Part shown: positions 23,102 through 46,746 of the stretch, piece by piece
Position numbering within the stretch: position 1 is the stretch's first letter
Layout: every line of letters starts with the position of its first letter
NCBI RefSeq assembly: GCF_051903065.1
Contig: NZ_CP178438.1
Strand: one strand, 5' to 3'
DNA length: 64,000 nucleotides
Origin: Escherichia coli
Lineage (GTDB): Bacteria > Pseudomonadota > Gammaproteobacteria > Enterobacterales > Enterobacteriaceae
Program-made: the position numbers and the translations under genes
Notes under the pieces: model-generated
What the model was told of the DNA's origin: nothing
Database searches by the model: none
Seen by the model: the letters and a program-made list of their open reading frames with translations, nothing else

Positions 23102-23319
23102 CTCAATCCTTTAGGCTTGCATGTTATCTTCAGCCCAGGATGATTCTTAAATCAGCTATTTCCGCTGACTCTCTGCTCGATAAGGATGCTTTTAGGGCAT
23201 CCTTTCATTTACACTTTTTACGAAATCATGGGATCACTAACAAAATATCGCTTGTCAGTTATATTGTATGGCATGAAAGATATGCGACTGATATTACAGA
23301 TCCCCAAAGTGGAGAATTT

Positions 23320-23658: not shown

Positions 23659-23690
23659 AAAAAGCCCCCTCATCATGAGGGGGAAATGCA
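23656..23690. terminator. Bidirectional rho-independent terminator between rcnB and yehA
   Basis: aaaaaaagccccctcatcatgagggggaaatg: GC hairpin flanked by A-run and T-rich stretch. Confidence 0.6.
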
Positions 23691-23739
23691 GACACCTTGT
23701 TATTTTTTATTATTAGCCACTTGCTCGTCTTGCTTGTTA

Positions 23740-24774
23740 TTAGTCGTATTTCACGTTGATTAGTGCGGTTGCCTCCAGTGCGCCAGATTTAACTTTGTTT
23801 GTATCGTAGACGTAGTAACTGGCTGTTATCGGAATTGAAACCGTTGTATCTGTAAGTTTTAACTTTGCCGCAATTTCTTTTAAATTTGTGTATCCTTTAC
23901 TGCTGTTAGTGATATTTAAAAGTGTGACTGGCGAACCATTACTTTCAAGAATAAATCCTACGCCATTATCTTCCGCACCTTTCAGTATTGTGTTGCTGTT
24001 GGTTAACAAGTCAGAACTTGATAAATACACCTGCATTTTCCGTGATGTTTGATTTTGTTGACCTAATAAATTTTTACAACGCAGAATAATATCCCCTTTT
24101 TTACTATTTACTGTTGCTTTGTTACCTGTGGCTGGTAATTGTGAAACGGGAATACTCTCTAAAGTAATTAATAAATCGTCCGGTTTGCAGGTTGTGGTTA
24201 TCGGGTTGTATGACAATGTCAGATTAAAGGAATAGACACCTGCATTTTGTGCCAATGCATTTCTGTAGCTATTTACACATGCATCCCATGACTTGCCACC
24301 TAATAAACACAGTAGAAATTGTACTGCGGCACTCCCGCGTGTCGATGATGAAGCACTGGATAATGTCGCAACACCATTAATCATCACTGAACCGCCGCCC
24401 CCCGCAGAAACATTCACTTTTGCATTACTGGCCGCAGGTGTCACCGTTACCGAATAACCACTGGTGAAACTGGTCTGATTATTTGACAACGTGATGTTAT
24501 TTTTATTGGTCCATTCAAAATGTAAATTTAATTTAATAGTATCGTTATAAAGTCCAACAATAATATCCGACGGGCTCATAGGGGTGATAGTATTTGTACT
24601 TACGCATGACGAATCATTAAAATTATGCTCATAGGTCGCCATTTGTGTTTGAGTAAGTGCAAAATCCCCCTGAACAACCAAATTGTGCTGAACAGATAAC
24701 TCACTATAACATGCTGCATAGCTCACTGGCATAACCATCATCATTAATATAAATAGCATTATGCGAATTTTCAT
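23740..24774 (-). CDS. yehA: Fimbrial adhesin-like protein YehA (chaperone-usher fimbriae)
   Basis: 344 aa, signal peptide, Ser/Thr/Asn-rich; last gene of yehDCBA. Confidence 0.8.
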   Translation of the reverse strand: MKIRIMLFILMMMVMPVSYAACYSELSVQHNLVVQGDFALTQTQMATYEHNFNDSSCVSTNTITPMSPSDIIVGLYNDTIKLNLHFEWTNKNNITLSNNQTSFTSGYSVTVTPAASNAKVNVSAGGGGSVMINGVATLSSASSSTRGSAAVQFLLCLLGGKSWDACVNSYRNALAQNAGVYSFNLTLSYNPITTTCKPDDLLITLESIPVSQLPATGNKATVNSKKGDIILRCKNLLGQQNQTSRKMQVYLSSSDLLTNSNTILKGAEDNGVGFILESNGSPVTLLNITNSSKGYTNLKEIAAKLKLTDTTVSIPITASYYVYDTNKVKSGALEATALINVKYD

Positions 24775-24789
24775 AGAACCACCTGACTA

Positions 24790-27285: not shown

Positions 27286-27960
27286 TTAAATTTTGTCACT
27301 AATATAATTGCCGTGGTCATCGATAATGGTCAGATACCAGTTATTTGCATTATTACTTTTGACATTAACACTCTGACTTTCTAAGGGGGCAATCATAATA
27401 GTTTCATAATTGACTTTAACATTATTAGCTTTGACATCCGAAATCGTCACCCAATTAGCTGAGTCATTTTTTATCACCAATCCATTGCCACTGCGATTTA
27501 CCAGTAACTTTTTAAAGGTCGCTTTATTTACCGGAGCAATACCCGCCGGGCGGTAAAACAATTTGATTCTGTTTTGCATCGCAAACTTCAGTGCATTCTT
27601 ACCTTCTTGTTCTGGACTATTTGGTGGAATATCCAGAACATTCAGATAAAAAATGCTTTCTTTATTAGTGGGCAGTTTATTCGGCATAATTTTGATTTTT
27701 ACTTGCTGCCCGGAATTTGCCCCTATTTTTGCCACTGGTGGCGTTAACATGAAAGGAACCTGAATTTTTTCTGGTGGTAACGACGTATCGCCATCATCAA
27801 TCCACGCCTGCAGCAGCGAAGAACGGTTTCCCTGGTTCATCAACTGCACCATAACTTCTTTATTTTCTGCCGGGTAAATAATGCGCGTCCCGTAGATAAC
27901 AATTCCGGCATGTGCAGGAAGGACCATAGAAAAAATGAGTAAAGATAATAATCCTTTCAT
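27286..27960 (-). CDS. yehC: Periplasmic fimbrial chaperone YehC (PapD-like)
   Basis: 224 aa; signal peptide; adjacent to usher. Confidence 0.85.
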   Translation of the reverse strand: MKGLLSLLIFSMVLPAHAGIVIYGTRIIYPAENKEVMVQLMNQGNRSSLLQAWIDDGDTSLPPEKIQVPFMLTPPVAKIGANSGQQVKIKIMPNKLPTNKESIFYLNVLDIPPNSPEQEGKNALKFAMQNRIKLFYRPAGIAPVNKATFKKLLVNRSGNGLVIKNDSANWVTISDVKANNVKVNYETIMIAPLESQSVNVKSNNANNWYLTIIDDHGNYISDKI

Positions 27961-28040
27961 CTTAATGCCTCTTAAATTAAAAAGCCGCCATGGGGATAGC
28001 GGCCATGTTTATTACCTGGAGAAACTTGCAATTTTATTTA

Positions 28041-28583
28041 TTAATCCTGCGCCACACGCATAACCAGAGAAGATAACACATCACCTGATTGCACTGAGTT
28101 ATCTGTCAGTTTCAGGTATTTTGCTTTAAACGGAATAGCATATTGACCTTCCGCTGTTTTATAACTCTCAATATTAAAAGGTGCAGAAACATCCAGGACA
28201 TCGCTGTTATCACCTAAATAGAGATAGTAACCCACAGTATCGTTGCTACTGGCTATCGCCTTATCGTTACCAGTTATTTTATCGTTGGTAATCAACGAGA
28301 GTTTTACACCAGCAACTTCTTTCGGGCAGCTAATTTTTAACATGCTACTGGTTACACCGACTGCATCATCATAGGTAGAATATTTAGCTTTACCTTCAAA
28401 GACAGTGGTTGGTACAGTTGGCATATTAATACTTACTGAATCACCACCCGCTTCGAATTTACACGGAGATTCTGCAATATTTCCTTTAATGGTTAATGTT
28501 CCGGTATCAACGTCTGCAGCAAATACTCCAGCGCTCATAAAAAAAGAAGAAAAGACAGCGACAGCAATAATTGAACGTTTCAT
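28041..28583 (-). CDS. yehD: Major fimbrial subunit-like protein YehD
   Basis: 180 aa; signal peptide; AT-rich upstream region. Confidence 0.85.
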   Translation of the reverse strand: MKRSIIAVAVFSSFFMSAGVFAADVDTGTLTIKGNIAESPCKFEAGGDSVSINMPTVPTTVFEGKAKYSTYDDAVGVTSSMLKISCPKEVAGVKLSLITNDKITGNDKAIASSNDTVGYYLYLGDNSDVLDVSAPFNIESYKTAEGQYAIPFKAKYLKLTDNSVQSGDVLSSLVMRVAQD

Positions 28584-28875
28584 AATATGTTCCTTAATAA
28601 AATTTATTTTTGGTTGTTAAGAGTCTGTATCTCTTGGAAACAAATTTCTCACATCAAAAAAGTTGCCGCAATGTAAACATATTGTTTTATTGATTTAAAA
28701 CAAATTAACCATTGCAATATAAATACAACAAATACTTAAGAGTATTAAATATTTATCGTATCTATTAATTAATGTAGATTTATGTAAATGGTATTGTTGA
28801 TATCAATAAAAAAGCCGAAATCATTTATATAAATGATTTCGGCTTTCTAAATGCAATTAAAATCAGGTTGCCAAA

Positions 28876-32833: not shown

Positions 32834-35800
32834 ATGAAGAGTTATATCTATCAGGACGAAAAATCACATAAATTCTGGGCGGTGGAGCAGCAGGGAAACG
32901 AGTTGCATATCAGCTGGGGAAAAGTTGGTACCCAAGGGCAAAGCCAGGTAAAAAATTTTGCTGATGTTGCAGCAGCGGAAAAAGCGAAACTGAAGCTTAT
33001 CGCGGAGAAAACGAAAAAAGGCTATGTGGAAAATGCTTCAGCAAACGTGCATATCCCCCCCATTACCAAAGCCACTCCTGAAGTTGAAACTTCCCCTGAG
33101 AGTAAAAACCAACGCCCCTGGCTGGCTGATGATGCGGTCATTCGGCTAACTGACGATATTAATCGATTTGCTTTTCCTCATCGCTCTCGCCCCAGAGAGA
33201 TCAATTATCTGCACAAAGATGGTCAAATATGGCAGCTCATCGCGAATAACACCAGAGCATATGATCCCGCCAACAATTACCGTTCTTATCCAGAAAACTG
33301 GCAGCAGGCTTTTGCTGAGTTACAAATGCGAGTTCAGGGTAATCAACAGACAGGGAGTGTGCAATCTGATGCAGCATTGCTCTGGAGTTTCTGGAACTCT
33401 TACTCTGCAGATGAACTGGTCGATGACTTAGTCATTCGCTGTGGTCTGGAAAGTGCCGTTGAAATTGCCCTTCTCGCTCTTCAACTTAGATATAAACCAG
33501 TAAAAGCCGACGTCACCACCATCATTCCCCCTGATCTCAAAGCAGAATCGCTACCGAACTGGCATCAACGTCTATGTCATCATCTTTCACTCGCTTCAGA
33601 AGATGAGTGGCAACGCTGTGTAGATAAGGTACTCGCGGCTATTCCCTCGCTATCCCCAGCACGGCAACCTTTTGCGGCGTTACTGATCCCTGAACGCCCG
33701 GATATCGCCAATGCTATGGCGCTACATTATGCAGATCAAAACGTTCCGGCGATGACCTGGTTAAGTATGATGGTAAGCGATGATGTTGCCCTGGCCATCC
33801 AGGAAAAATATGGTTTCCCACCGCTATATAATGATTTCCGCAAATATCTGGCTACGTTACTGGCAAATAATGGAATGCGTGGTGTAAGCCGGATTCTTCT
33901 CAAGCTACCTGTCGACTATCCCGTAAAATACACGGACCTTTTCACTCACATACACGCCAATGCTGAAAATCTTGTCAAATGGCTATGGAAAACGAATCAC
34001 CCGGATGCGATTCAAATTCTGATCCTCGGTGTAAATGGCAAGAAAAAGCACCTGGAATACTTAAGCAAAGCCTGCCAAAAACATCCCGCTGCGGCTATTG
34101 CCGCTTATGCTACTTTGCTGGCAATACATGAAAATAATGAGTGGCGTAAAGCGCTTGTCAAACTGATTACCGCCACGCCAGAGTTAGTATGCGAGGTCAT
34201 TCCCTGGGTTAATGCTAAGGCGGCAGGCATCTTATCTGAATGTCGTCCGCTGCCAATAGCTGAAGAATGTGAATATGCCACTGTGGATATGTTGCCGGAG
34301 CTGCTGGTCGCTCCACCGTGGGTAATAAATAAGAAAAAGAATGTCATACCCGTATTTGATTTACCGGTACTTCCCATTCCTGCCGTCACGGATATCACAC
34401 CAGGAATTACAGAGTTAATCAGTCATACTGACATATCCAGATTCAGTGAAATCGCGCAATATCAGGCATCACAGCAAACCTTATTTACCGACCTGCCACT
34501 AATTGAAAAAGAAAGCTGGGAGACATCTTTCATTCCTTTTACACCAGAACAACAAATTCTTTGGCAATTAGGTTTTAATGAATGGCTGCATTGCGAAAAT
34601 GACTTACATGAAAAAAAATATATACCGCAAAGCGCTGTTGATGCCTTGTTGCGCTTTGATTTTTCAGCACTAAAAGCTGAGTTTGCGAAATATCACAACA
34701 ATGCCAACAAAAGCTGGAATCTATCTGCGCTTTGTTACTTACCGGGACAACAGGCGATCTCATTTCTCAACCAAATAATCATTGAGGAGCGATATTCAGG
34801 TGAGAAAGAGATTCTGGCGGTTTTTGGTAGTACGGCCATTCCTGCGTTTATGACCTGCTTGCAACGAGATCATCAACGCCTGTGGATATTCACCCTTTTT
34901 ATTGGAGCCAGTGAACTAGCCTTACCAATGGCGCAGCGGTTACAGAAAAAAATAGCTTACAAGGATGCCGTTAATTGGCTGGCAAATAACCCGCGCCATG
35001 CCGCCGCCGGGCTACTGCCTTTGGCGCTGGGCAAACCGTGCCAAAATCGGGAATATGCCCGCCAGGCACTCCTCCTGCTAGTGAAATTAAACCAGCGAGA
35101 AACGATTGAGGAAATCGCCCAAGGATATAATCAACCTGATGTTTTAGCTGCGCTGGCAACATTATTTGATAGCGACCCACTGGAAGAATATCCTGCAAAA
35201 ATCGCCCCACTGCCCGGCTTTTATCAGTTCCCCTTATGGCGCAGACCTCGGCTTAAAAGTAACAACCTGCCTCTGCCAGATGACGCTATGCGCCACCTCG
35301 GCACAATGTTGAGCTTTCCACGCGACATTACCTCCTACGCTGGGCTGGCGATCATCAAAGAGACCTTCACCCGCGAATCACTGGCTGACTTTGGCTGGGA
35401 TCTCTACACGGCATGGACAGAAGCAGGCGCACCCGCAAAAGAGAACTGGGCATTTACCTCGCTGGGGATTCTAGGCAATGACGACACCGCGCGTAAACTA
35501 ACCCCGCTCATCCGCGCCTGGCCGGGTGAATCCCAGCATAAACGCGCGGTTTACGGGCTGGATGTGTTAGCCAGTATCGGTAGCGACATTGCGCTTATGT
35601 TGCTTAATGGCATTGCGCAAAAGATTAAATTCGTTGCATTACAGGAATATGCCAGCGACAGAATCAATATGGTCGCCGAAAATCGCGGACTGACAATGGC
35701 CGAACTGGAAGATCGCCTGGCACCGGATTTAGGGCTTGATAGCAGTGGCTCGCTAATATACTGGATTTCGGCCCCCGCAAATTCACCGTTGGTTTTGACG

Positions 35801-36636
35801 AAACCTTAAAACCTGTAGTGTGCGATGCAAACGGCAAAGTCCTGAAAGATTTACCTAAGACAAACCAGAGCGATGATAAAACACTGGCAACTGACGCAGT
35901 TAATCTCTTCAAACAGTTGAAAAAAGATGTTCGTGCTATCGCCAGCCAGCAAATTACCCGTCTGGAACAGGCTATGTGCCAGCGCAGACGCTGGACGGCA
36001 GAGCAGTTCCGCCTGTTTCTGGTGGAGCATCCGCTGGTACGTCACTTAACCCGACGGCTGTTATGGGGGGTTTATAACGATGAAAACGCCCTTATCATCT
36101 GTTTTCGCGTGGCAGAAGACAGCACTTACAGCGATGCGCAGGATGAGTTATTCACGCTGCCAGCAGGAAACATCGGTATACCGCATGTGCTGGAAATCCC
36201 CCCTGAATCCGCCGCTGCATTCAGGCAAATTTACGTTGATTACGAACTGCTTCCCCCTTTCCAACAGCTCGAACGTGGTAGTTACCACCTTGCTGATAAC
36301 GAACGTAATGTCCATGAATTGTCACGCTGGAACGGACGTCTCTGCCAGGCCGGACGCATTGTCGGGCTGGAACGCAGAGGCTGGCAACGTCTGGAAGAAA
36401 GCGGCAGCGTCTATGCGATGCGCAAATCTACCCCTTATGGTGCTCTCGAACTTGAAACAGAACCTTTTTCATTAATTTATGGCGAAACGGGGTATAGCGA
36501 CCTGCTGCCTGTCGAAAGCGTAAAAATCACCGCCCCTTATGATCGCTATGGTAAACAATCCTCACCCACTTTCTCCGTGCTCGACGACATCACCGCCAGC
36601 GAGCTGATTAACGACATTGAATCACTGTTTGATTAA
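32834..36636 (+). pseudogene. Giant WGR-domain / DUF4132-family protein (molR/yehH-like), disrupted by a frameshift near 35757
   Basis: ORFs 32834..35809 (991 aa) and 35818..36636 (272 aa) are in different frames; joined they are colinear with the intact 1249-aa paralog downstream; break is at ctaatatactggat. Confidence 0.75.
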
Positions 36637-36648
36637 AAGGATTTAACA

Positions 36649-39600
36649 ATGAAAACCTATATTTATCAGGACGAAAAATCACATAAATTCTGGGCGGTGG
36701 AGCAGCAGAGAAACGAGCTGCATATCAACTGGGGCAAAGTCGGCACTAACGGGCAAAGTCAGGTAAAAAGCTTTGCTGATGCTGCGGCGGCAGAAAAAGC
36801 GGAACTGAAGCTGATTGCGGAGAAGGTGAAGAAGGGGTATGTGGAAGAATTATCTTCACCATCCCAACCCGCAATCAAAATAGAAACGATCGAAGTAGAT
36901 ACAGCTGACGTGGCAGAAACCAAAGTCGTATTTGACCAAAGTATGGTTGTTGAACCTGCTGAGACACCATGCCCGTGGCTGACAGATGATTCCACTATCC
37001 ATCTATCGGAGAAAAAGTCTCAGGGGGCCTTACCTTCCCGACGTTTTCCTGGGGATGCTGTAAGCGAACCACAAGACAGCCTCCTTATGAATTTAGGTCA
37101 GGATATTCATAATCTATCAGGAAAATTAACAACATACGATTTCAGTGCATGTTCTGCTAACTGGCAGCAGAATATCAATGAAGCTCTCGCTAATGGTCCA
37201 CTTTCTCCTGCTGCGTTGGCTGTACAGGTTGTTCTGGTTTCACGTAAATTCTGGGGCGAATGCCCTGAACTCATGGATGAAATTGTCTATGTCTACGGAC
37301 TAGAATTTGCCGTGGATATGTTTATTGCCATGCAATATATCTCGTTCGATTGCACTTATCACAGAACAAGCATACACATAACTTTTCAGCCATTATTAAT
37401 CCACGCACATTGTGTTACCCCCTTTGACGTTCGACTGCGTAAACATTTGGCTCTAGCAGAAGAAACTTTGTGGCAACGCTGTGTAGATAAATTCATTACA
37501 GCTTTGCCTGATATTCCTCCCGTTCAACAACCGATGGTAGCGCTAATGCTACCGGAACGCCCGGAGATTGCAGAAGAAGTCGCACGACGGTTACTGGAGC
37601 AGAAAAATGGCCACACTGTTGAATGGCTGAAACTTGTTGTACAAGAATCTTCCTTGCTCAAAGCACTGGAATCTTATTGCGCGTACGACCTTTTTAATGA
37701 CTATTACCATGGTTGCATCTGGAATGTCACCGTTTTGCAGGAGCAAGGGATTGCCGGAATCGCTCGCTTCGCCCCCTATGCTTATGCTGATCTTTGCGGA
37801 AGTATTCTCGCAGAGATCAATCACCCACAAGCATTAATGCTACTTATACGTGTGTCTGGCAAAACTAAACGCTGCCATGAACGAATGACTACGGCTTGCG
37901 CTGCGTTCCCACACGCAGCACTGGCAGCACTGGCGGAACTTCTAGTGCAAAAAGAAGAGAATAGTTGGCGCATTATGCTAATGACGATGCTTATCTCGCA
38001 ACCGACACTAGCAGAACAGGTCATTCCCTGGCTTTCGACACCCGCAGTTGCAGTGCTGAAATCATGCCAGCAACAACTGACACAGCCCTCAAACCATGCC
38101 TGCGTCGATCTACTGCCTGCCGTATTAGTCTCACCGCCCTGGCTTTCGAAAAAGAAAAAATCTGTAATGCCGGTATTGGATTTAACGCCATTACCGTTGG
38201 AGTCATGCTGTACATTGACCGAGACGGCAGAAAAAGAGATTCATGCAAGGCATCGCTGGCACGCACATCAAATAGACATCGGCCAAAAAGAGGATATTCA
38301 GAACTACCTGGCACGTCTGGGTTTCAATCGCTGGAATAATGGCCAGTATATGAAAGCGCCTGATGCTGCTATAGAGCTCTGGCAAAGGGGAGATTATTCC
38401 GCGCTGATCAGCGAATTTAAAACCTTCTGGCACTCCTATCAACGGGAATGGCAGCTTTACATGTTAGCCGCCCTGCCTATCGAAAAGACAGCGCAGGCGT
38501 GGAATGTCCTCAGTAAAGAGCCACACGTCGGTGTCGAGTTTGTCATGACGCACCTGCAACTCACTGGGTTACAGGGTTTTATTCACTCCTTTTCACGCTA
38601 CCCGCAAGAAGCTCTGCCTGTAGCACAATATTTTGCGGCTATCGAATTAGCGCCACTGATCGCCCGTGCCTTCAACAAACTCAAAACCCTACGACAAGAC
38701 GCCCGTAGCTGGCTGCTAAAATACCCGGAACACGCCATAACCGGCCTGCTGCCTTCGGCGCTCGGCAAAGCCGGTGAAGCACAGGATAACGCTCGCGCTG
38801 CCTTACGTATGCTTACCGAAAACGGTCATCAGCCATTACTGCAAGAAATCGCCCGGCGTTATAACCAGCCGGAAGTAACCGACGCGGTGAACGCTCTGCT
38901 TGCGCTCGATCCCTTAGATAATCACCCGACAAAAATCCCCACTCTTCCGGCCTTTTATCAGCCATCGCTCTGGACGCGCCCGGTATTAAATACAAACGCC
39001 CAATCACTGCCAGATAGCGCACTCCAGCACCTCGGTGAAATGCTCCGCTTCCCTCAGGAAGAGGCCCTGTATCCGGGATTATTGCAGGTGAAAGATGCCT
39101 GTACCGCCGACTCACTGGCTGAATTTGCCTGGGATCTGTTTACCGCCTGGTTGACTGCGGGCGCACCGTCGAAAGAGAGTTGGGCGTTCACTGCGTTAGG
39201 CGTTCTTGGTAACGATGACACCGCCCGCAAACTGACGCCATTAATACGCGCCTGGCCTGGTGAATCCCAGCATAAACGCGCCACCGTTGGGTTGGATATT
39301 CTCGCCGCTATCGGTAGTGATATCGCCCTGATGCAGCTTAACGGTATTGCCCAGAAACTGAAATTCAAAGCATTACAGGAGCGGGCAAAAGAAAAAATTG
39401 CCGACATTGCCGAAAGCCGCGAACTCACGGTGGCAGAGCTTGAAGATCGGTTAGCACCGGATCTCGGTCTGGATGATAACGGTTCGTTGCTGCTGGATTT
39501 CGGCTCACGCCAGTTCACCGTCAGCTTTGATGAAACCTTAAAACCGTTTGTGCGTGATGTTTCTGGCAGCCGTCTGAAAGACCTGCCCAAACCAAACAAA

Positions 39601-40398
39601 AGCGATGATGAATCACAGGCGAACGATGCTGTTAACCGCTACAAATTGCTGAAAAAAGATGCGCGTACCGTCGCCGCCCAGCAGGTAGCAAGGCTGGAAT
39701 CCGCCATGTGCCTGCGCCGCCGCTGGTCGCCGGAAAACTTCCAGCTCTTCCTGGTTGAGCATCCGTTGGTTCGCCACTTAACCCGCCGTCTGATTTGGGG
39801 TGTTTATAGCGCCGAAAACCAGCTACTGGCTTGCTTTCGCGTAGCGGAAGATAACAGCTACAGTACCGCTGACGATGATCTTTTCACCCTGCCGGAAGGC
39901 GATATCTCTATCGGCATTCCTCACGTTCTGGAAATATCACCAACGGATGCTGCCGCCTTTGGTCAGCTTTTTGCCGACTACGAACTGCTACCACCGTTCC
40001 GTCAGCTTGACCGTAACAGTTACGCCCTGACAGAAGCCGAGCGCAACGCCAGCGAACTGACCCGCTGGGCAGGCAGAAAATGCCCGAGCGGTCGGGTCAT
40101 GGGGCTGGCGAATAAAGGCTGGATAAAGGGCACCCCGCAGGATGGAGGCTGGATCGGCTGGATGATCAAACCTCTCGGTCGCTGGTCGTTAATCATGGAA
40201 ATCGATGAAGGTTTTGCGGTAGGCATGTCGCCAGCCGAACTGAGTGCCGAGCAGCTCTTAAGCAAGCTGTGGCTATGGGAAGGCAAAGCAGAAAGCTATG
40301 GCTGGGGGAGTAATTCAACACAGGAAGCGCAGCTCTCCGTACTCGATGCCATCACCGCCAGCGAGCTGATTAACGATATTGAAGCTCTGTTTGAATAA
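36649..40398 (+). CDS. Giant WGR-domain / DUF4132-family protein (molR/yehI paralog), intact
   Basis: 1249 aa; N-terminal 66 aa near-identical to the upstream gene (MKTYIYQDEKSHKFWAVEQQ...WGKVG); 12-bp gap from upstream gene. Confidence 0.8.
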   Translation: MKTYIYQDEKSHKFWAVEQQRNELHINWGKVGTNGQSQVKSFADAAAAEKAELKLIAEKVKKGYVEELSSPSQPAIKIETIEVDTADVAETKVVFDQSMVVEPAETPCPWLTDDSTIHLSEKKSQGALPSRRFPGDAVSEPQDSLLMNLGQDIHNLSGKLTTYDFSACSANWQQNINEALANGPLSPAALAVQVVLVSRKFWGECPELMDEIVYVYGLEFAVDMFIAMQYISFDCTYHRTSIHITFQPLLIHAHCVTPFDVRLRKHLALAEETLWQRCVDKFITALPDIPPVQQPMVALMLPERPEIAEEVARRLLEQKNGHTVEWLKLVVQESSLLKALESYCAYDLFNDYYHGCIWNVTVLQEQGIAGIARFAPYAYADLCGSILAEINHPQALMLLIRVSGKTKRCHERMTTACAAFPHAALAALAELLVQKEENSWRIMLMTMLISQPTLAEQVIPWLSTPAVAVLKSCQQQLTQPSNHACVDLLPAVLVSPPWLSKKKKSVMPVLDLTPLPLESCCTLTETAEKEIHARHRWHAHQIDIGQKEDIQNYLARLGFNRWNNGQYMKAPDAAIELWQRGDYSALISEFKTFWHSYQREWQLYMLAALPIEKTAQAWNVLSKEPHVGVEFVMTHLQLTGLQGFIHSFSRYPQEALPVAQYFAAIELAPLIARAFNKLKTLRQDARSWLLKYPEHAITGLLPSALGKAGEAQDNARAALRMLTENGHQPLLQEIARRYNQPEVTDAVNALLALDPLDNHPTKIPTLPAFYQPSLWTRPVLNTNAQSLPDSALQHLGEMLRFPQEEALYPGLLQVKDACTADSLAEFAWDLFTAWLTAGAPSKESWAFTALGVLGNDDTARKLTPLIRAWPGESQHKRATVGLDILAAIGSDIALMQLNGIAQKLKFKALQERAKEKIADIAESRELTVAELEDRLAPDLGLDDNGSLLLDFGSRQFTVSFDETLKPFVRDVSGSRLKDLPKPNKSDDESQANDAVNRYKLLKKDARTVAAQQVARLESAMCLRRRWSPENFQLFLVEHPLVRHLTRRLIWGVYSAENQLLACFRVAEDNSYSTADDDLFTLPEGDISIGIPHVLEISPTDAAAFGQLFADYELLPPFRQLDRNSYALTEAERNASELTRWAGRKCPSGRVMGLANKGWIKGTPQDGGWIGWMIKPLGRWSLIMEIDEGFAVGMSPAELSAEQLLSKLWLWEGKAESYGWGSNSTQEAQLSVLDAITASELINDIEALFE

Positions 40399-40407
40399 GG
40401 AAAGAGC

Positions 40408-43400
40408 ATGGACAAGGAATTACCGTGGCTGGCGGATAACGCCCAAGTGGAACTGAAATATAAAAAAGGCAAAACACCACTCAGCCATCGCAATTGGCCG
40501 GGCGAACCGGTGCCTGTTATCACTGAAAGCCTCATCCAGACACTGGGTGATGAATTGCTACAAAAAGCAGAGAAGAAAAAAAACATTGTCTGGCGTTATG
40601 AAAATTTTTCACTGGAGTGGCAGTCCGCCATTACGCAGGCCATCAACTTGATCGGCGAACACAAACCCTCAGTCCCGGCCCGCACAATGGCGGCGCTAGC
40701 CTGTATCGCGCAAAATGACAGCCAACAGTTGCTCGACGAAATCGTCCAACAAGAGGGGCTGGAATATGCGACTGAGGTGGTGATTGCACGCCAGTTTATT
40801 GCACGGTGTTATGAAAGTGATCCTCTGGTAGTCACATTGCAGTATCAGAACGAGGACTATGGCTATGGTTATCGCTCAGAAACCTATAACGAATTCGATC
40901 TCCGACTGCGTAAACACCTCTCTCTGGCAGAGGAAAGCTGCTGGCAGCGTTGCGCCGACAAACTCATTGCCGCACTGCCAGGAATAACCAAAGTTCGCCG
41001 TCCTTTTATTGCGCTGATCCTCCCGGAAAAGCCTGAAATAGCCAATGAACTCGCCAGTCTTGAAAGCTCCCGGTCAAGTCTCCATTCAAAGGAGTGGTTA
41101 AAGGTCGTTGCTACTGATAATACGGCGGTAAAAAAACTCGAACGATACTGGGGCCTGGACGTATTTAGCGATCGCGAAGCCAGCTACATGTCACAAAAAA
41201 ACCACTTCGGCTACGCGGCCTGCGCCGCCCTTTTGCGCGAACAAGGACTGGCAGCCATTCCGCGCCTCGCGATGTATGCCCATAAAGAAGATTGCGGCAG
41301 TCTGTTGGTACAAATTAACCATCCGCAGGTCATCCACACCTTGCTACTGGTGGCTGATAAAAACAAACCCAGCCTGCAACGTGTGGCTAAATACAGTAAA
41401 AACTTCCCCCACGCGACGCTCGCGGCACTGGCAGAACTGCTGGCGTTAAAAGAACCACCAGCCCGCCCTGGTTATCCAATCATCGAAGACAAAAAGCTGC
41501 CTGCCCAGCAAAAAGCACGCGATGAATACTGGCGTACGCTGTTACAAACGCTGATGGCATCGCAGCCACAACTGGTAGAAGAGGTGATGCAGTGGTTAAG
41601 TACTCAAGCCCGGGCAGTACTGAATAGTTATTTATTGGCACCGCCCAAACCGGTTATTGATGGCACCGATAACAGCAATCTGCCTGAAATCCTCGTTTCA
41701 CCACCGTGGCGTAGTAAGAAAAAAATGACAGCTCCACGTCTTGATTTGGCACCGCTCGAATTAACCCCGCAAGTTTACTGGCAACCAGGCGAACAAGAGA
41801 GGCTTGCCTCCACTGAGTCTGCCCGTTATTTCAGCACGGAATCTCTTGCGGAACGCATGGAACAAAAAAGTGGGCGAGTTGTATTACAGGAACTGGGTTT
41901 TGGGGATGATGTATGGCTGTTTCTGAATTATATACTCCCCGGAAAACTGGATGCTGCACGCAATTCACTCATTGTTCAGTGGCATTACTACCAGGGGCGG
42001 GTTGAAGAGATCCTGAATGGCTGGAACTCCCCGGAAGCACAATTAGCAGAACAGGCGCTCCGCAGCGGTCACATAGAAGCGTTAATTAACATATGGGAAA
42101 ATGACAACTACTCACGTTATCGTCCGGAAAAGAGTGTCTGGAACCTGTATTTATTGGCACAGTTGCCGCGTGAGATGGCTTTGACCTTCTGGCTGCGTAT
42201 CAATGAGAAAAAACATCTGTTCGCGGGTGAGGACTATTTTCTCAGTATCCTCGGATTGGATGCGCTACCAGGTCTGCTGTTGGCTTTTTTACATCGTCCA
42301 AAAGAAACATTTCCGTTAATTTTAAATTTTGGCGCAACAGAACTGGCCCTGCCCGTTGCCCGCGTCTGGCACCGTTTTGCGGGCCAGCGTAATCTGGCTC
42401 GCCAGTGGATTTTACAATGGCCGGAACATACGGCTACTGCACTTATCCCTCTTGTCTTTATCAAACCCAGCGATAATAGCGAAGCCGCATTACTTGCCCT
42501 GCGTTTACTGTACGAACAGGGACATGGCGAGTTGCTGCAAACCGTGGCAAACCGCTGGCAACGCGCTGATGTATGGCCTGCCCTGGAGCAGTTGCTTAAA
42601 CAGGGTCCAATGGACATTTACCCGGCACGCATTCCAAAAGCCCCTGATTTCTGGCATCCGCAAATGTGGTCCAGGCCGCGCCTTATCACTAATAATCAAC
42701 CTGTTACCGATGACGCTCTGGAAATTATCGGCGAAATGCTGCGCTTTACCCAGGGGGGACGTTTTTATAGCGGTCTGGAACAACTGAAAACGTTTTGCCA
42801 GCCACAAACGCTGGCCGCTTTTGCCTGGGATCTCTTCACTGCGTGGCAACAAGCTGGTGCCCCCGCAAAAGACAACTGGGCATTTCTGGCGTTAAGTCTC
42901 TTTGGTGACGAAAGCACGGCTCGGGATCTGACGACACAGATCCTCGCCTGGCCACAAGAAGGCAAATCTGCCCGTGCTGTCAGCGGCCTGAACATCCTTA
43001 CCCTGATGAATAATGATATGGCGCTGATGCAGCTGCATCATATATCGCAACGGGCTAAATCCCGCCCCTTACGTGATAACGCGGCGGAATTTCTTCAGGT
43101 GGTCGCAGAAAATCGCGGGCTAAGCCAGGAAGAGCTAGCGGACAGATTAGTCCCAATCCTGGGCCTTGATGATCCGCAGGCGTTGAGTTTTGATTTTGAT
43201 CCCCGGCAGTTTACCGTTCGCTTCGATGAAAACCTCAACCCGGTTATCTTTGATCAGCAAAACGTTCGCCAGAAAAGTGTTCCCCGGTTGCGTGCCGATG
43301 ACGATCAACTGAAAGCGCCCGAGGCACTGGCCCGACTAAAAGGGCTAAAAAAAGATGCTACTCAGGTGAGCAAAAACCTGCTCCCGCGTCTTGAAGCTGC

Positions 43401-44040
43401 CCTACGTACCACCCGACGCTGGTCGCTGGCAGATTTTCATTCTCTGTTTGTTAATCATCCCTTTACCCGCCTGGTTACCCAGCGATTAATATGGGGGGGT
43501 TATCCGGCAAATGAACCGCGTCGTTTACTCAACGCCTTTCGTGTGGCCGCAGAGGGGGAGTTCTGCAATGCGCAGGATGAGCCCATTGACCTTCCTGCGG
43601 ATGCTCTGATTGGCATTGCCCACCCGTTAGAAATGACAGCAGAAATGCGCAGTGAATTTGCACAGCTTTTTGCCGATTACGAAATTATGCCGCCTTTTCG
43701 CCAGTTGTCGCGCCGCACGGTGCTGCTCACACCTGACGAGTCAACCAGTAACAGCCTGACTCGCTGGGAAGGTAAATCCGCTACCGTTGGGCAACTTATG
43801 GGAATGCGATACAAAGGCTGGGAATCAGGCTATGAGGACGCATTTGTCTATGACCTGGGTGAGTACCGGCTGGTCCTTAAGTTTTCACCCGGTTTTAACC
43901 ACTACAATGTTGATAGCAAAGCGCTAATGAGCTTCCGTTCTCTTCGAGTGTACCGTGACAATAAATCCGTCACTTTTGCCGAACTTGATGTGTTTGATTT
44001 GAGAGAGGCGTTAAGCGCACCTGACGTCATTTTCCATTAA
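40408..44040 (+). CDS. yehI: Giant DUF4132-family protein YehI (paralog lacking the N-terminal WGR module)
   Basis: 1210 aa; shares conserved C-terminal blocks with the two upstream genes (e.g. DDTARKLTPLIRAWPGESQHKRA-like, RRWS..F..FLVEHP..R); 9-bp gap from upstream gene. Confidence 0.8.
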   Translation: MDKELPWLADNAQVELKYKKGKTPLSHRNWPGEPVPVITESLIQTLGDELLQKAEKKKNIVWRYENFSLEWQSAITQAINLIGEHKPSVPARTMAALACIAQNDSQQLLDEIVQQEGLEYATEVVIARQFIARCYESDPLVVTLQYQNEDYGYGYRSETYNEFDLRLRKHLSLAEESCWQRCADKLIAALPGITKVRRPFIALILPEKPEIANELASLESSRSSLHSKEWLKVVATDNTAVKKLERYWGLDVFSDREASYMSQKNHFGYAACAALLREQGLAAIPRLAMYAHKEDCGSLLVQINHPQVIHTLLLVADKNKPSLQRVAKYSKNFPHATLAALAELLALKEPPARPGYPIIEDKKLPAQQKARDEYWRTLLQTLMASQPQLVEEVMQWLSTQARAVLNSYLLAPPKPVIDGTDNSNLPEILVSPPWRSKKKMTAPRLDLAPLELTPQVYWQPGEQERLASTESARYFSTESLAERMEQKSGRVVLQELGFGDDVWLFLNYILPGKLDAARNSLIVQWHYYQGRVEEILNGWNSPEAQLAEQALRSGHIEALINIWENDNYSRYRPEKSVWNLYLLAQLPREMALTFWLRINEKKHLFAGEDYFLSILGLDALPGLLLAFLHRPKETFPLILNFGATELALPVARVWHRFAGQRNLARQWILQWPEHTATALIPLVFIKPSDNSEAALLALRLLYEQGHGELLQTVANRWQRADVWPALEQLLKQGPMDIYPARIPKAPDFWHPQMWSRPRLITNNQPVTDDALEIIGEMLRFTQGGRFYSGLEQLKTFCQPQTLAAFAWDLFTAWQQAGAPAKDNWAFLALSLFGDESTARDLTTQILAWPQEGKSARAVSGLNILTLMNNDMALMQLHHISQRAKSRPLRDNAAEFLQVVAENRGLSQEELADRLVPILGLDDPQALSFDFDPRQFTVRFDENLNPVIFDQQNVRQKSVPRLRADDDQLKAPEALARLKGLKKDATQVSKNLLPRLEAALRTTRRWSLADFHSLFVNHPFTRLVTQRLIWGGYPANEPRRLLNAFRVAAEGEFCNAQDEPIDLPADALIGIAHPLEMTAEMRSEFAQLFADYEIMPPFRQLSRRTVLLTPDESTSNSLTRWEGKSATVGQLMGMRYKGWESGYEDAFVYDLGEYRLVLKFSPGFNHYNVDSKALMSFRSLRVYRDNKSVTFAELDVFDLREALSAPDVIFH

Positions 44041-44100
44041 AACACAGCGGGCAGTGATGCAACTGCCTGTTATTAACACGACTTACCAGCGGGGAAAGCG

Positions 44101-44418
44101 ATGATCGTGCAAAAAGAGCTGGTTGCTATTTACGATTATGAGGTCCCTGTACCTGAAGATCCGTTTTCCTTCAGACTTGAGATCCATAAATGCTCTGAAT
44201 TATTTACAGGTTCCGTCTATCGACGGGAGCGATTCCGGCTACATCCAACATTTCATCAACGTGATCGAGAAGATGCTGACCCGCTAATAAATGATGCGTT
44301 GATTTATATAAGAGATGAGTGTATTGATGAGCGGAAATTACGAGGTAAATCACCTGAAACTGTAATAGCAATTTTTAATCGTGAACTACAGAATATATTC
44401 AACCAAGAAATAGAATAA
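44101..44418 (+). CDS. yehK: Small hypothetical protein YehK
   Basis: 105-aa ORF, AT-rich, immediately downstream of yehI. Confidence 0.7.
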   Translation: MIVQKELVAIYDYEVPVPEDPFSFRLEIHKCSELFTGSVYRRERFRLHPTFHQRDREDADPLINDALIYIRDECIDERKLRGKSPETVIAIFNRELQNIFNQEIE

Positions 44419-44527
44419 TATACTCTAGATAATTCAAGTCGCAGCACATGCAACTTGAAGTATGACGAGTATAGCTTTATTAAAGGGGGAAGCGGTTTTC
44501 CCCCTTAGATGCGTTTCAATTTGCCCG

Positions 44528-44617
44528 TTACTTCAACAAATCAATCAACCGTAACAGAGCCACTAATAACTCCAGTACGGCAATGAGCACGATTAACTTT
44601 TGTGTCAGCGTGTCCAT
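44528..44617 (-). CDS. Type I toxin, ZorO/ZorP-like 29-aa hydrophobic peptide (copy 1)
   Basis: Minus-strand ORF MDTLTQKLIVLIAVLELLVALLRLIDLLK with strong SD (taaggagagcggATG); downstream terminator hairpin gggggaa-gcgg-ttttccccc. Confidence 0.85.
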   Translation of the reverse strand: MDTLTQKLIVLIAVLELLVALLRLIDLLK

Positions 44618-44802
44618 CCGCTCTCCTTATTAAGGAGCGCAACACCAGCACCTTACCCTTACACTGCCTGTCGATACTGGTTTACGTATGTTGGTACGAA
44701 ACGTTGCTCTCCGGATCAGGGCACCGCCTGCGGCACCACCCGTCCAGCAGCCAGGACTTAAAATTGGTCCGATCCGGCACAACCTCCCAACGGGCAGGAT
44801 TA

Positions 44803-44849
44803 TAAATCTCATTCACTGAATTGCAATGGAGTGTGGATATGGTTATAAT
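44803..44849. promoter_or_regulatory. Back-to-back sigma70 promoters sharing one palindromic -35 hexamer TTGCAA (copy 1)
   Basis: -35 ttgcaa 44821-44826; rightward -10 tataat 44844-44849 (17-bp spacer) for orz; leftward -10 (plus-strand attata 44803-44808, 16-bp spacer) for zor. Confidence 0.55.
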
Positions 44850-44856
44850 TTATTCG

Positions 44857-44936
44857 TTGGTACGAAATGTTGCACAATCAGCAAGTTAGCGTCACTGTAG
44901 TAAATAAAAGAACCTGCCTCACCAGCAGGTTTTTTT
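44857..44936 (+). ncRNA. Orz-type antitoxin sRNA (copy 1)
   Basis: Starts after the tataat box, ends at hairpin acctgcctcaccagcaggt + T7; 5' region guugguacgaaauguugc pairs over 18 nt (one G.U) with the zor 5' UTR (plus 44693-44710); ends approximate. Confidence 0.65.
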
Positions 44937-45135
44937 ATTTTCTGCGATCTACTTTCCAGATATTTTTTGCCAATAGCCCACCATAAATATTCACATCCCG
45001 GTCAAATGGTGCGTTGAATATAAAATCGATGAACTTATAAATAAACATGAGTTATATGATGAATTAATAAAAACAGTAATCATTTTATTAAAGGGGGAAG
45101 CGGTTTTCCCCCTTAGATGCGTTTCAATTTGCCCG

Positions 45136-45225
45136 TTACTTCAACAAATCAATCAACCGTAACAGAGCTACTAATAGCTCCAGTACGGCAATGAGCACGG
45201 TTAACTTTTGTGTCAGCGTGTCCAT
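45136..45225 (-). CDS. zorO: Type I toxin ZorO-like 29-aa peptide (copy 2)
   Basis: Minus-strand ORF MDTLTQKLTVLIAVLELLVALLRLIDLLK (differs from copy 1 at residue 9, T vs I); assignment of zorO vs zorP to the two copies is uncertain. Confidence 0.8.
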   Translation of the reverse strand: MDTLTQKLTVLIAVLELLVALLRLIDLLK

Positions 45226-45406
45226 CCGCTCTCCTTATTAAGGAGCGCAACACCAGCACCTTACCCTTACACTGCCTGTCGATACTGGTTTACGTATGTT
45301 GGACCACGATGTTGCACTCCGGATCAGGGCACCACCTGCAGCACCACCCGTCCGGTAGCCAGGACTTGAAATAGGTTCGATCCGGCGCAACGTCCCAACG
45401 GTCTGG

Positions 45407-45457
45407 ATTATAAATCTCATTATCTTAATTGCAACGGGGTCCAGCCGTGGTTATAAT
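45407..45457. promoter_or_regulatory. Back-to-back sigma70 promoters sharing palindromic -35 TTGCAA (copy 2)
   Basis: -35 ttgcaa 45429-45434; rightward tataat 45452-45457; leftward -10 as plus-strand attata 45407-45412. Confidence 0.55.
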
Positions 45458-45464
45458 TCGTTCG

Positions 45465-45547
45465 TTGGAACACGATGTTGCACAGGCTGTGGTGTTAGGC
45501 CTGAAAATAGTAAATAAAAGAACCTGCCTCACCAGCAGGTTTTTTTA
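45465..45547 (+). ncRNA. Orz-type antitoxin sRNA (copy 2)
   Basis: guuggaacacgauguugcac complementary (one mismatch) to the copy-2 zor 5' UTR; terminator acctgcctcaccagcaggt + T-run; ends approximate. Confidence 0.65.
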
Positions 45548-45658
45548 TTTACTATGATCTGCTTTCCAGATATTTTTTGCTCAAACAACTAATGCGCCAA
45601 ACATTTATTGCGCGTAAAATATCGTTTATTTCATTAATACATTTCAGGGATGAATATA

Positions 45659-46746
45659 TGTCACCGCAGAATAATCATCTGCAGCGTCCGCCTGCTGCTG
45701 TGTTATACGCCGATGAACTGGCAAAATTAAAACAAAATGATACCGCACCTTGCCCGCCCGGTTGGCAGTTAAGTTTGCCTGCGGCCCGTGCTTTTATCCT
45801 TGGCGATAGCGCGCAAAATATTAGCCGTAAAGTGGTGATTAGTCCCTCCGCTGTCGAACGTATGTTAGTCACTCTTGCCACCGGACGCGGTTTGATGTTG
45901 GTGGGGGAACCTGGCACCGCAAAATCTCTCCTGTCTGAATTACTGGCAACCGCTATTAGCGGCGATGCCGGGTTAACCATCCAGGGCGGTGCATCTACTA
46001 CCGAAGATCAAATCAAGTACGGCTGGAACTACGCCCTGCTTATCAATCATGGTCCATCAACGGAAGCGCTGGTCCCTGCCCCGCTTTACCAGGGAATGCG
46101 CGACGGCAAAATCGTCCGTTTTGAAGAGATAACGCGTACACCGCTGGAAGTGCAAGACTGTCTGTTAGGTATGCTTTCTGACAGGGTGATGACGGTGCCG
46201 GAACTCACTGGTGAAGCCAGTCAGCTCTATGCGCGAGAAGGCTTTAATATTATTGCCACTGCCAATACCCGCGATCGCGGCGTCAATGAAATGAGTGCTG
46301 CGCTAAAGCGTCGCTTCGATTTTGAAACTGTCTTTCCGATTATGGATTTCGCCCAGGAGCTGGAGCTTGTCGCCAGTGCTTCGGCGCGTTTGCTGGCCCA
46401 TAGCGGTATTCCGCATAAAGTGCCTGACGCGGTACTGGAGTTACTGGTCCGCACTTTCCGCGATCTGCGTGCCAACGGCGAAAAGAAAACGTCAATGGAT
46501 ACACTAACAGCGATTATGTCCACCGCTGAAGCCGTGAACGTGGCCCACGCTGTGGGCGTCCGCGCCTGGTTTTTGGCGAATCGCGCAGGTGAGCCAGCCG
46601 ATCTGGTGGACTGTATTGCCGGAACCATCGTTAAAGATAACGAAGAAGATCGCGCTCGTCTGCGCCGTTACTTCGAACAGCGTGTCGCCACACATAAAGA
46701 AGCTCACTGGCAGGCTTATTATCAAGCCCGCCACCGCCTGCCGTGA
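45659..46746 (+). CDS. yehL: MoxR-like AAA+ ATPase YehL
   Basis: 362 aa from MSPQNNHLQ (SD agggatgaatatATG); Walker A GEPGTAKS, Walker B-like IVRFEEI. Confidence 0.88.

Follow-up and report, generated by a model that had tools for sequence, protein, structure and literature searches.

The DNA segment at positions 44101–45658 of the 64,000-nt Escherichia coli window analysed here is probably an old, Escherichia-specific composite insertion, made up of the gene yehK and zor-orz toxin–antitoxin units, in an otherwise widely conserved five-gene cassette. As we reconstruct it, this cassette comprises a WGR-DUF4132 gene, a MoxR AAA+ ATPase gene, and DUF5682, VWA and SWIM genes. A single zor-orz unit was likely the ancestral state of the genus. 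Later, the unit would have been duplicated in tandem to give the O and P units seen in the window, an ERIC repeat would have inserted just after yehK and partly decayed, and roughly a third of E. coli would have lost the toxin through a microhomology-mediated deletion that spared only orzP. The synteny supplies an evolutionary context in which yehK and zor-orz were inserted, together or successively, at the base of Escherichia. An insertion of that age would make zor-orz older and more widespread than the "E. coli and Shigella only" of the 2014 paper.

The left flank of the segment is yehI (40408–44040, plus strand; ORF of 1,210 aa; Pfam DUF4132, E = 1.9e-46), which comes last in a series of three giant DUF4132 paralogues. 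The right flank is yehL (45658–46746, plus strand), which encodes a MoxR-type AAA+ ATPase (Pfam AAA_5, E = 1.6e-34) and is the first gene of yehLMPQ; its downstream neighbours are identified by Pfam as DUF5682, VWA_CoxE and SWIM genes. The original prediction placed an AT-rich island at 44101–45658 and the coordinates are accurate; since yehL starts at 45658, the last position of the island is the first base of yehL. The 60-bp spacer between yehI and yehK contains a hairpin (44046–44071, plus strand) with no T-run after it. Positions 44036–44105 fold at −20.5 kcal/mol (z = −3.2), and in our scan the site is terminator-like on the minus strand only. The segment is identical (100%) to an E. coli chromosome, and the window matches O157:H7 genomes with 98.5% identity over the whole query; yehI, yehK and yehL are annotated in both cases.

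The presence of duplicated toxin–antitoxin units is confirmed. Direct repeats of 300 nt (94% identity) and 73 nt (95% identity), located 608–610 bp apart, delimit two 608-bp tandem zor-orz type I units, separated by a unique spacer outside the repeat families (44971–45083, G+C 0.292). In the first unit, the zorO toxin ORF lies on the minus strand at 44528–44617 (29 aa, MDTLTQKLIVLIAVLELLVALLRLIDLLK; taken from the ORF list). It is followed by a minus-strand terminator hairpin at 44483–44506, formed by the palindrome AAGGGGGAAGCGGTTTTCCCCCTT (centroid fold −14.6 kcal/mol) and then UUUAAUAAA. The zorO −10 element at 44804–44799 predicts a transcription start near 44792, and hence a 5' UTR of ~175 nt (44618–44792, minus strand), in line with the published zor UTR of 174 nt (PMC5397157). 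The divergent zorO and orzO promoters (44799–44849) have a common palindromic −35 hexamer, TTGCAA, at 44821–44826, and both are 10-of-12 matches. The orzO antitoxin sRNA (44863–44936, plus strand; Rfam RF02083, 88.8 bits) ends in an intrinsic terminator facing yehL. The predicted OrzO pairing site in the zorO 5' UTR, 44690–44707, is repeated at 44856–44873 with 94% identity (17/18 positions), which implies antisense complementarity between the zorO and OrzO RNAs. The second unit has the same organization: the zorP ORF at 45136–45225 (minus strand, 29 aa, MDTLTQKLTVLIAVLELLVALLRLIDLLK) with its terminator hairpin at 45091–45114, the zorP 5' UTR at 45226–45400 (minus strand) with its promoter at 45434–45407, the divergent promoters at 45407–45457 with the common −35 hexamer TTGCAA at 45429–45434, and the orzP sRNA with its terminator at 45471–45546 (plus strand; RF02083, 99.9 bits). 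The putative OrzP pairing site at 45293–45317 is repeated at 45459–45483 with 88% identity. The two toxins differ at residue 9, which is Ile in unit 1 and Thr in unit 2.

Each unit thus contains an sRNA that exceeds the gathering score of 60 of the OrzO-P model (RF02083), a divergent ORF for a hydrophobic 29-aa toxin of the described Zor family (PMC2887945, PMC3919570), and the pairing region, for which the published requirement is complementarity of 15–19 nt between the 5' end of Orz and the zor 5' UTR (PMC3919570). If each unit acts as published, the zor mRNA, encoding a 29-aa membrane toxin behind a 5' UTR of ~175 nt, would be repressed by the divergent Orz sRNA of ~80 nt through pairing with 18–19 nt of that UTR. 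Toxicity of the Zor peptides and rescue by the sRNA were shown experimentally for the EDL933 alleles (PMC2887945, PMC3919570). The original prediction also assigned the island its own promoters and terminators, and these are found as divergent promoter pairs and terminator hairpins inside the units. All four σ70-like sites detected in 43800–45900 are 10-of-12 matches arranged in these divergent pairs. Their total does not exceed that in shuffled sequences (4.4 ± 2.3). The same hexamers are reported to be more than 99% conserved (PMC11264685, Table 3). Five terminator-like sites were detected in the same region compared with 1.4 expected, and the terminator hairpins of orzO (−25.7 kcal/mol, z = −5.3) and orzP (−34.2 kcal/mol, z = −6.0) are stable. 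Weak Rfam matches to STnc370, the Thr and Trp leaders, CrcZ and isrH were rejected as sub-threshold look-alikes of terminators or of the ERIC repeat; the isrH match is the ERIC repeat itself.

The segment is AT-rich relative to its flanks, as originally proposed, with G+C of 0.422 compared to 0.509 in yehI, 0.540 in yehL and 0.501 in the whole window. Across the whole window, just 4.9% of all 1,558-nt windows do not exceed this G+C, and apart from those at the segment itself almost all of them lie in the yehABCD fimbrial region at ~23–28.5 kb. Composition varies among the parts of the segment: 0.384 in yehK, 0.386 in the short ERIC repeat, 0.455 in unit 1, 0.467 in unit 2 and 0.295 in the yehL leader; in both units the core formed by the 5' UTR and the promoters is at ~0.50. 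As a sign of foreign origin, low G+C holds for yehK, which ranks second lowest among the 47 genes of the window. It fails for the non-coding part (44419–45657), which at 0.432 has an ordinary intergenic composition (0.441 in the other intergenic DNA of the window). The unusual composition is therefore confined to yehK.

Evidence of an insertion comes from the cassettes of other genera. The gene order DUF4132, AAA_5, DUF5682, VWA_CoxE, SWIM is found in 23 of the 25 loci of the YehL scan, three of them from Escherichia. In 20 of 22 non-Escherichia loci, which come from Gamma-, Beta- and Deltaproteobacteria and Acidobacteria, the WGR-DUF4132 gene lies directly upstream of the yehL homologue, so that the segment interrupts a gene set that is contiguous elsewhere. 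The gap between the two genes ranges from −4 to 286 bp in these loci (median ~56 bp, subject to heuristic choice of start codons), compared with 1,617 bp in the window. No homologue of yehK or zor-orz was found in the 22 non-Escherichia loci; among cassette loci the YehK profile matched in Escherichia only (0/22 elsewhere), its further matches being in separately fetched metagenome contigs. Klebsiella has the three-paralogue array in common with E. coli, with 77–230 bp before yehL. The intergenic DNA of Klebsiella, Thorsellia, Trichlorobacter and Intestinirhabdus contains neither similarity to the island nor a remnant marking the insertion borders. The gaps of 230–286 bp in Klebsiella spallanzanii, K. 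oxytoca, Thorsellia and Trichlorobacter could hold signals of their own. The cassette has a patchy distribution and was probably itself horizontally transferred; its donor could conceivably have carried yehK beforehand.

Within Escherichia the picture is reversed, and the insertion is neither recent nor strain-specific: every lineage examined has yehK and at least one zor-orz unit, and the two always occur together. One unit accompanies yehK in E. albertii, E. marmotae, a genome labelled E. fergusonii and two further Escherichia species, and two units are present at the site in E. whittamii. With the segment in all Escherichia examined and in none of the 22 outgroup loci, an old, genus-wide insertion is indicated.

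The ERIC repeat is a younger feature. ERIC (IRU) elements are imperfect palindromes of ~127 bp with a conserved core, present in many copies in intergenic transcribed regions. The short copy at 44419–44473, which also matches other places in E. coli genomes, has both element ends without the core. At the same position, two other loci (L003 and L009) carry a full ERIC with core GTGAATCCCCAGGAGCTTAC and AAGTAAGTGAC[A/T]GGGGTGAACG, recognised by what we take to be the ERIC1R and ERIC2 primer sequences. Among the loci compared, no ERIC was found at the site in E. albertii, E. marmotae and strain RIVM, so that the element after yehK is present, absent or truncated depending on the genome. The island is not one element, since the ERIC insertion, the unit duplication and the loss of the toxin each happened separately at a later stage.

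The extent of toxin loss is apparent from a census of 5,426 complete E. coli genomes. The toxin part was found in 3,397, the two-unit junction (query 44860–45200, at least 80% covered) in 1,816, orz in 5,220 and the yehL 5' end in a nearly equal 5,218. Judged from the counts of these separate searches rather than from per-genome intersections, ~1,820 of the 5,426 genomes (about one third) have lost the toxin and kept yehK, orzP and yehL, and ~206 lack both orz and yehL. The accessory cluster is missing from ~4% of E. coli. These figures agree with published ones: earlier work (Fozo 2010; Wen 2014; Shore 2024) already described zor-orz, the variation in its copy number, and the K-12 and B strains that carry orz without the toxin. 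The original prediction proposed comparing the junction with that of genomes lacking zor-orz. Among E. coli such genomes are not empty sites: K-12 and B are deletion derivatives, retaining orzP, its promoter and ~30 nt of the zor 5' UTR (PMC11264685). REL606 matches window positions 45366–45998 at 96.4%, with an OrzO-P score of 96.5 bits. The deletion junction in K-12 and B lies at AAATTG, common to the left arm of ERIC and the zor 5' UTR.

The gene yehK (44101–44418, plus strand, 105 aa) is a real protein-coding gene of an uncurated and uncharacterised small-protein family. Its dN/dS between Escherichia species is 0.15–0.27, similar to that of yehI. Searches of Pfam and of PDB sequences gave no significant match to the family. 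A profile search recovered 54 relatives, including proteins of ~100–120 aa at only 25–46% identity on metagenome-derived contigs. The distant relatives lie mostly on contigs of 1–2.5 kb, next to DUF4265, DUF4288, an integrase or a primase, and contigs so short are too thin a basis for assigning a function from neighbours. An AlphaFold2 model of YehK, made up of four strands and a helix at the C terminus, reached pLDDT 90.8, compared with an unusable 43.7 from Escherichia sequences only, and we flag YehK as a member of an uncurated small-protein family whose fold can now be predicted with confidence. PADLOC models gave no match to YehH, YehI, YehK, YehL, YehM, YehP or YehQ, and the proteins consequently show no link to known defence systems.

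The segment lacks the usual marks of a genomic island. No integrase, transposase or recombinase ORF and no tRNA gene was found in 44041–45657, and no direct repeats or target duplication flank the segment. No clean empty site was found in close relatives, as every Escherichia locus read has yehK and orz; empty sites are confined to other genera. The only flanking repeat, a 27-nt inverted match between the 3' end of yehK and the start of yehL (21/27 positions, a score reached in 0 of 60 region shuffles), was rejected as a pair of terminal repeats: the left arm is part of the yehK coding sequence, and the score falls to 17/27 in E. albertii and 14/27 in E. marmotae. The lack of mobility genes and target repeats would also be expected if there had been no insertion at all, only ordinary intergenic DNA with a small gene, the Escherichia spacer having grown longer and its genes having arisen in place. 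The non-coding G+C close to that of other intergenic DNA, and the restriction of known zor-orz homologues to Escherichia (PMC3919570), fit this explanation as well. We nevertheless consider it unlikely. Relatives of YehK at 25–46% identity occur in other gene contexts, which means that yehK did not arise de novo in the spacer; the gene has the second-lowest G+C of the 47; and 20 of the 22 outgroup gaps measure at most 286 bp and bear no similarity to the island. PMC11264685 hints that the zor 5' UTR derives from a dinQ-like locus on a plasmid.

Plasmid type I modules such as hok-sok stabilise their replicons by addiction, and the original prediction suggested that the units had been captured as stabilising elements. 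Such a role, in which zor-orz would be kept against loss of the flanking yeh genes, would suit their central position in a cluster of accessory genes that ~4% of E. coli lack. It is, however, very improbable: the one third of genomes that have lost the toxin still keep yehK, orzP and yehL, the ~206 genomes without orz and yehL have lost both, and yehF and yehH have decayed in K-12. Moreover, post-segregational killing, where the antitoxin gene is lost and the toxin mRNA persists, was not demonstrated for zor-orz (PMC3919570).

If the segment is an insertion, it may have consequences for transcription of yehLMPQ. Transcription arriving from yehHI-yehK would pass antisense through zor and then meet one or two strong orz terminators before yehL, and from this geometry we infer that an ancestral operon was transcriptionally split; that operon is itself deduced from short gaps. 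The orz terminators face yehL, an arrangement that fits a read-through barrier and, with two strong terminators in that orientation, the original suggestion that the units may modulate read-through into yehLMPQ. The yehL leader (45547–45657, plus strand) is conserved in Escherichia in an alignment of 12 sequences. The standard scan found no promoter in it, and a lenient scan found a −10-like TAAAAT at 45615–45620 without a good −35. The yehLMPQ genes would then have to be transcribed either from a weak local promoter or by read-through that starts at the orzP promoter.

These observations lead us to speculate that orzP could be a transcriptional gateway of yehLMPQ, with one segment doubling as antitoxin gene and promoter-attenuator of the MoxR-VWA operon. 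The insertion would have cut yehLMPQ from the yehHI promoter and left it reliant on orzP read-through across the terminator. We regard this scenario as rather unlikely. If true, it would explain why roughly a third of E. coli conserve an antitoxin locus without the toxin. Slightly less doubtful, if still improbable, is the related explanation that orz is kept mainly as a cis-acting transcription unit, in which the strong orzP promoter and its terminator set the level of yehLMPQ by partial read-through; this role would explain the conservation of orzP after toxin loss. It is consistent with orzP lying ~110 bp ahead of yehL in the same orientation, with the lack of a good σ70 promoter between them, with the genus-wide conservation of the leader, and with the close agreement of the orz and yehL counts. 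Shore et al., in addition, confirmed that orphan orzP is expressed and found both its promoter and its transcribed region to be highly conserved, for which they offer no explanation; their text does not mention yehL (PMC11264685). Against it, the orzP terminator, whose long stem contains G+C and is followed by a U7–8 tail, appears efficient, and the conserved −10-like element (TAAAAT/TAGAAT at 45615–45620) could serve a separate yehL promoter. The orz-only state may also derive from very few deletion events, in which case the co-occurrence of orz and yehL carries little weight. Either way, the published puzzle of an antitoxin sRNA gene conserved without its toxin is recast as a question of orzP control over the operon downstream.

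Compared with known systems, the units differ in nothing essential from zorO-orzO and zorP-orzP of O157:H7 EDL933 (Fozo 2010; Wen 2014, 2017; Shore 2024), which have the same yehI/yehK–yehL site, tandem layout and 29-aa toxin ORFs, and likewise divergent TTGCAA/TATAAT promoters, a toxin 5' UTR of ~175 nt and RF02083 sRNAs. Toxicity, sRNA detection, transcription-start mapping, the base-pairing requirement and a copy-number census have been published (PMC2887945, PMC3919570, PMC5397157, PMC11264685). As the toxin–antitoxin module is so well described, the locus adds nothing new on mechanism. The tisB-istR1 and shoB-ohsC systems similarly combine a small hydrophobic toxin, a long structured 5' UTR and a divergent pairing sRNA (PMC2887945), but they are unrelated in sequence, single-copy and located elsewhere on the chromosome, not inside a conserved operon. 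The orz-only OrzPmg locus of K-12 and B shares orzP, its promoter and the yehL leader with the segment. Missing from it is 44438–45365, a stretch that runs from within ERIC, whose right part is lost, through the entire O unit and the zorP ORF into the zorP UTR, most of which is gone as well; the segment analysed here shows the undeleted state. The ERIC copy shares both ends with the enterobacterial ERIC/IRU element and differs from the full form as a 55-bp internally deleted version. Finally, the flanks are orthologous to the YehL-type MoxR cassettes of Klebsiella, Erwinia, Serratia, Stenotrophomonas, Acidovorax, Trichlorobacter and Acidobacteria, whereas the 1.1–1.6 kb yehK and zor-orz segment occurs only in Escherichia.

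The window is chromosomal E. coli DNA: its 43700-46000 stretch matches strain 23CRST027 at 100% identity and O157:H7 genomes at 98.5% over the whole query, with yehI, yehK and yehL annotated there. On the plus strand, a split WGR/DUF4132 paralogue (32834-35809 and 35818-36636) is followed by yehH (36649-40398; WGR plus DUF4132), yehI (40408-44040; DUF4132), yehK (44101-44418; no Pfam match), a non-coding block of 1,239 bases, yehL (45658-46746; AAA_5/MoxR) and then yehM, yehP and yehQ (DUF5682, VWA_CoxE and SWIM, respectively). The split paralogue, first of three, comprises a WGR piece of 991 aa and a DUF4132 piece of 272 aa that lie 8 nt apart and is probably a disrupted gene; the corresponding region of K-12 has decayed further, leaving a fragment of yehF and a pseudogene of yehH.

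The non-coding block contains a 55-bp ERIC remnant (44419-44473) and, by repeat search, two tandem units with 608-bp spacing and 94–95% identity. Each unit has a minus-strand toxin ORF of 29 codons (44528-44617 and 45136-45225 in the ORF list), a zor 5' UTR of ~175 nt, a divergent pair of sigma-70 promoters (each a 10-of-12 match) with a common palindromic TTGCAA −35 hexamer, and an orz sRNA on the plus strand that matches the Rfam OrzO-P model at 88.8 and 99.9 bits, respectively (threshold 60). At its 5' end, each sRNA duplicates part of its cognate UTR (44690-44707 at 44856-44873; 45293-45317 at 45459-45483), and because the two RNAs are transcribed from opposite strands, these direct repeats represent the published 18–19-nt antisense pairing. 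On this anatomy the units are zorO-orzO and zorP-orzP. In earlier published work, Zor is a membrane-active toxin whose processed UTR is bound by Orz, which blocks translation. The palindrome (44821-44826 and 45429-45434) forms the −35 element of both the zor and the orz promoter in each unit, and simultaneous occupancy of the two by RNA polymerases is probably not possible.

The original prediction described 44101-45658 as an AT-rich, insertion-like island with its own promoters and terminators. This feature is confirmed and correctly placed; the promoters and terminators accord with published transcription-start mapping (PMC2887945), and the sliding-window calculation bears out the composition, with a G+C content of 0.422 against 0.509 in yehI, 0.540 in yehL and 0.501 in the whole window. 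Across the 64 kb, 4.9% of equally long windows have a G+C content no higher than that of the segment, nearly all others lying in the yehABCD fimbrial region. The low G+C has two separate sources. yehK, at 0.384, is second-lowest among the 47 genes of the window; the non-coding block, at 0.432, is indistinguishable from the window's other intergenic DNA (0.441) and alternates between unit cores of ~0.50 and spacers of ~0.29. By composition alone, only yehK stands out. Within the window, AT content is highest in the fimbrial region itself (~23000-28600; gene G+C 0.38–0.39), where the lowest 1,558-nt window (0.361, below the segment's own value) starts at 27323.

A scan for YehL with one genome per species yielded 25 loci, three of them from Escherichia; in the other 22, genes were placed by ORF tracing and by tblastn searches that used the proteins of the window as queries. 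In 20 of these 22 loci a WGR-DUF4132 gene immediately precedes the yehL homologue and has the same orientation, with a gap of −4 to 286 bp (median ~56 bp) compared to 1,079–1,617 bp in Escherichia, and the DUF5682, VWA and SWIM genes come after yehL. These contiguous loci belong to three Klebsiella oxytoca-group species, Intestinirhabdus, two genomes of Erwinia persicina, Edaphovirga, Serratia silvae and Thorsellia, to Iodobacter, Acidovorax, Paracidovorax, one unclassified Proteobacteria MAG and Stenotrophomonas (three loci), and to Trichlorobacter, a deltaproteobacterium and two Acidobacteria MAGs. In the two exceptions the DUF4132 gene lies 8.5 kb upstream or follows the SWIM gene. Klebsiella also has a three-paralogue array, but just 77–230 bp before yehL, and this DNA has no similarity to the island; the YehK profile detected no relatives at the 22 loci. 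This comparison supports the proposal that the segment splits a conserved gene set. The simplest reading of the comparison is that the cassette was once contiguous and that yehK and zor-orz entered it in the Escherichia ancestor; the very short gaps suggest that the ancestral cassette was probably co-transcribed. The 230-bp spacer of K. spallanzanii and K. oxytoca (loci L014 and L034, 9770-10000) contains a hairpin and, after it, a T-run (GAGTCGAATATTGGCTTTTT), so that a terminator-like signal may also be present at this junction in genomes other than Escherichia. A 27-nt inverted match (21/27) between the yehK 3' end (44393-44419) and the start of yehL with its ribosome-binding site (45633-45659) flanks the non-coding block exactly, and none of 60 dinucleotide-shuffled versions of the region reached its score; it is probably due to chance, because it decays to 17/27 in E. 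albertii and 14/27 in E. marmotae.

The insertion is not recent. yehK, one zor-orz unit and yehL occur in this order in E. albertii (L006 6375-6464), E. marmotae (L008), a genome labelled E. fergusonii and two further Escherichia species, and E. whittamii (L018 8806-9891) has two units; at every one of these loci the 29-aa Zor ORF is intact and the OrzO-P model matches at 85–100 bits. This distribution indicates that the segment predates the divergence of the genus, likely with one unit as the ancestral state. The E. albertii and E. marmotae loci have no ERIC copy, and ERIC is a later arrival. The segment is no recent island; it is old, composite and present across the genus.

yehK is a real gene: dN/dS between Escherichia species is 0.15–0.27, compared to 0.15–0.28 for yehI and 0.02–0.07 for yehL, a constraint like that on yehI and looser than that on yehL. 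A word-indexed search found yehK in Escherichia only; an exhaustive profile search recovered 54 relatives, including proteins of ~100–120 aa at 25–46% identity that have in common with YehK the pattern FRLE...G.VYR.E.YRLQPTFPQ...DD.L..V.D. The family has no covering Pfam model and no PDB sequence. The few contigs with distant relatives carry further small genes (DUF4265, DUF4288) as well as integrases and a primase, and no MoxR cassette; these contexts, a thin sample, fit an acquired accessory gene.

The genomes lacking zor-orz, proposed for comparison, do not have an empty junction. The yehK-yehL spacer of REL606 and MG1655 is 306 bp. REL606 aligns to the window up to 44437 and again from 45366, retaining both divergent promoters, orzP (OrzO-P score 96.5 bits) and the yehL leader; at its junction, TATACTCTAAATAATTCAAATTG followed directly by GTCCGATC, the ERIC left arm and the zor 5' UTR are fused at a common AAATTG. 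This state is a deletion derivative rather than an empty site, the conclusion also of Shore 2024 (PMC11264685). Other E. coli genomes have a single unit, and their ERIC is absent, present or lengthened by an extra insert. In strain FDAARGOS_1259 (L003 1044-1187) the ERIC copy after yehK exceeds the 127-bp form of another locus (L009) by ~80 bp because of an internal insert.

Both orz terminators have the same orientation as yehL and are strong, with folding energies of −25.7 and −34.2 kcal/mol and z values below −5. Transcription from yehHI and yehK would cross zorO antisense and end at orzO or orzP, which would uncouple yehLMPQ from the upstream genes. The ~110 nt from the last terminator to yehL, conserved across the genus, contain a −10-like TAAAAT (TAGAAT in E. 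albertii), and promoter scans found no acceptable −35 there; yehLMPQ may therefore be driven by a weak or activator-dependent promoter, or by read-through from the strong orzP promoter. Among 5,426 complete genomes, orz is present in 5,220 and the yehL 5' end in 5,218, almost the same number, while the toxin is lost in ~1,820. The co-occurrence fits a cis role of orzP towards yehL, and equally well a few ancestral deletions. The most interesting lead remaining is that yehLMPQ expression may depend on the promoter and terminator of orzP, a possibility that we regard as unlikely. The suggestion that the units act as stabilising elements is not supported, given the loss of the toxin without loss of neighbouring genes; the ~206 genomes in which the orz region and the 5' end of yehL are both missing also count against it.

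The main components of the segment and their polymorphism are already known. Fozo 2010 (PMC2887945) located the repeat "between yehI and yehL", demonstrated toxicity, detected the sRNAs and pointed out that the region spans 0.3 kb in MG1655 and 1.2 kb in EDL933; OrzO repression and the role of the 174-nt UTR were worked out by Wen 2014 and 2017 (PMC3919570, PMC5397157). Shore 2024 (PMC11264685) reported no copy in 3% of 2,212 genomes, orz only in ~30%, one unit in 25% and two in 42%, and expression of the orphan sRNA OrzPmg in MG1655. In our census of the 5,426 genomes, 3,397 contain the toxin-side sequence, 1,816 the two-unit junction and 5,220 the orz terminator region; the classes derived from these totals of separate searches rather than from per-genome intersection (at least two units ~33%, one ~29%, orz only ~34%, none ~4%) accord with the published figures. 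Our searches also found a few matches on plasmids (four places) and up to six toxin-side copies in some genomes, consistent with the rare plasmid and multi-copy cases of Shore 2024. The range given in 2014, E. coli and Shigella (PMC3919570), is too narrow: E. fergusonii was already listed by Fozo 2010 (PMC2887945), and the units are also found in E. albertii, E. marmotae and E. whittamii.
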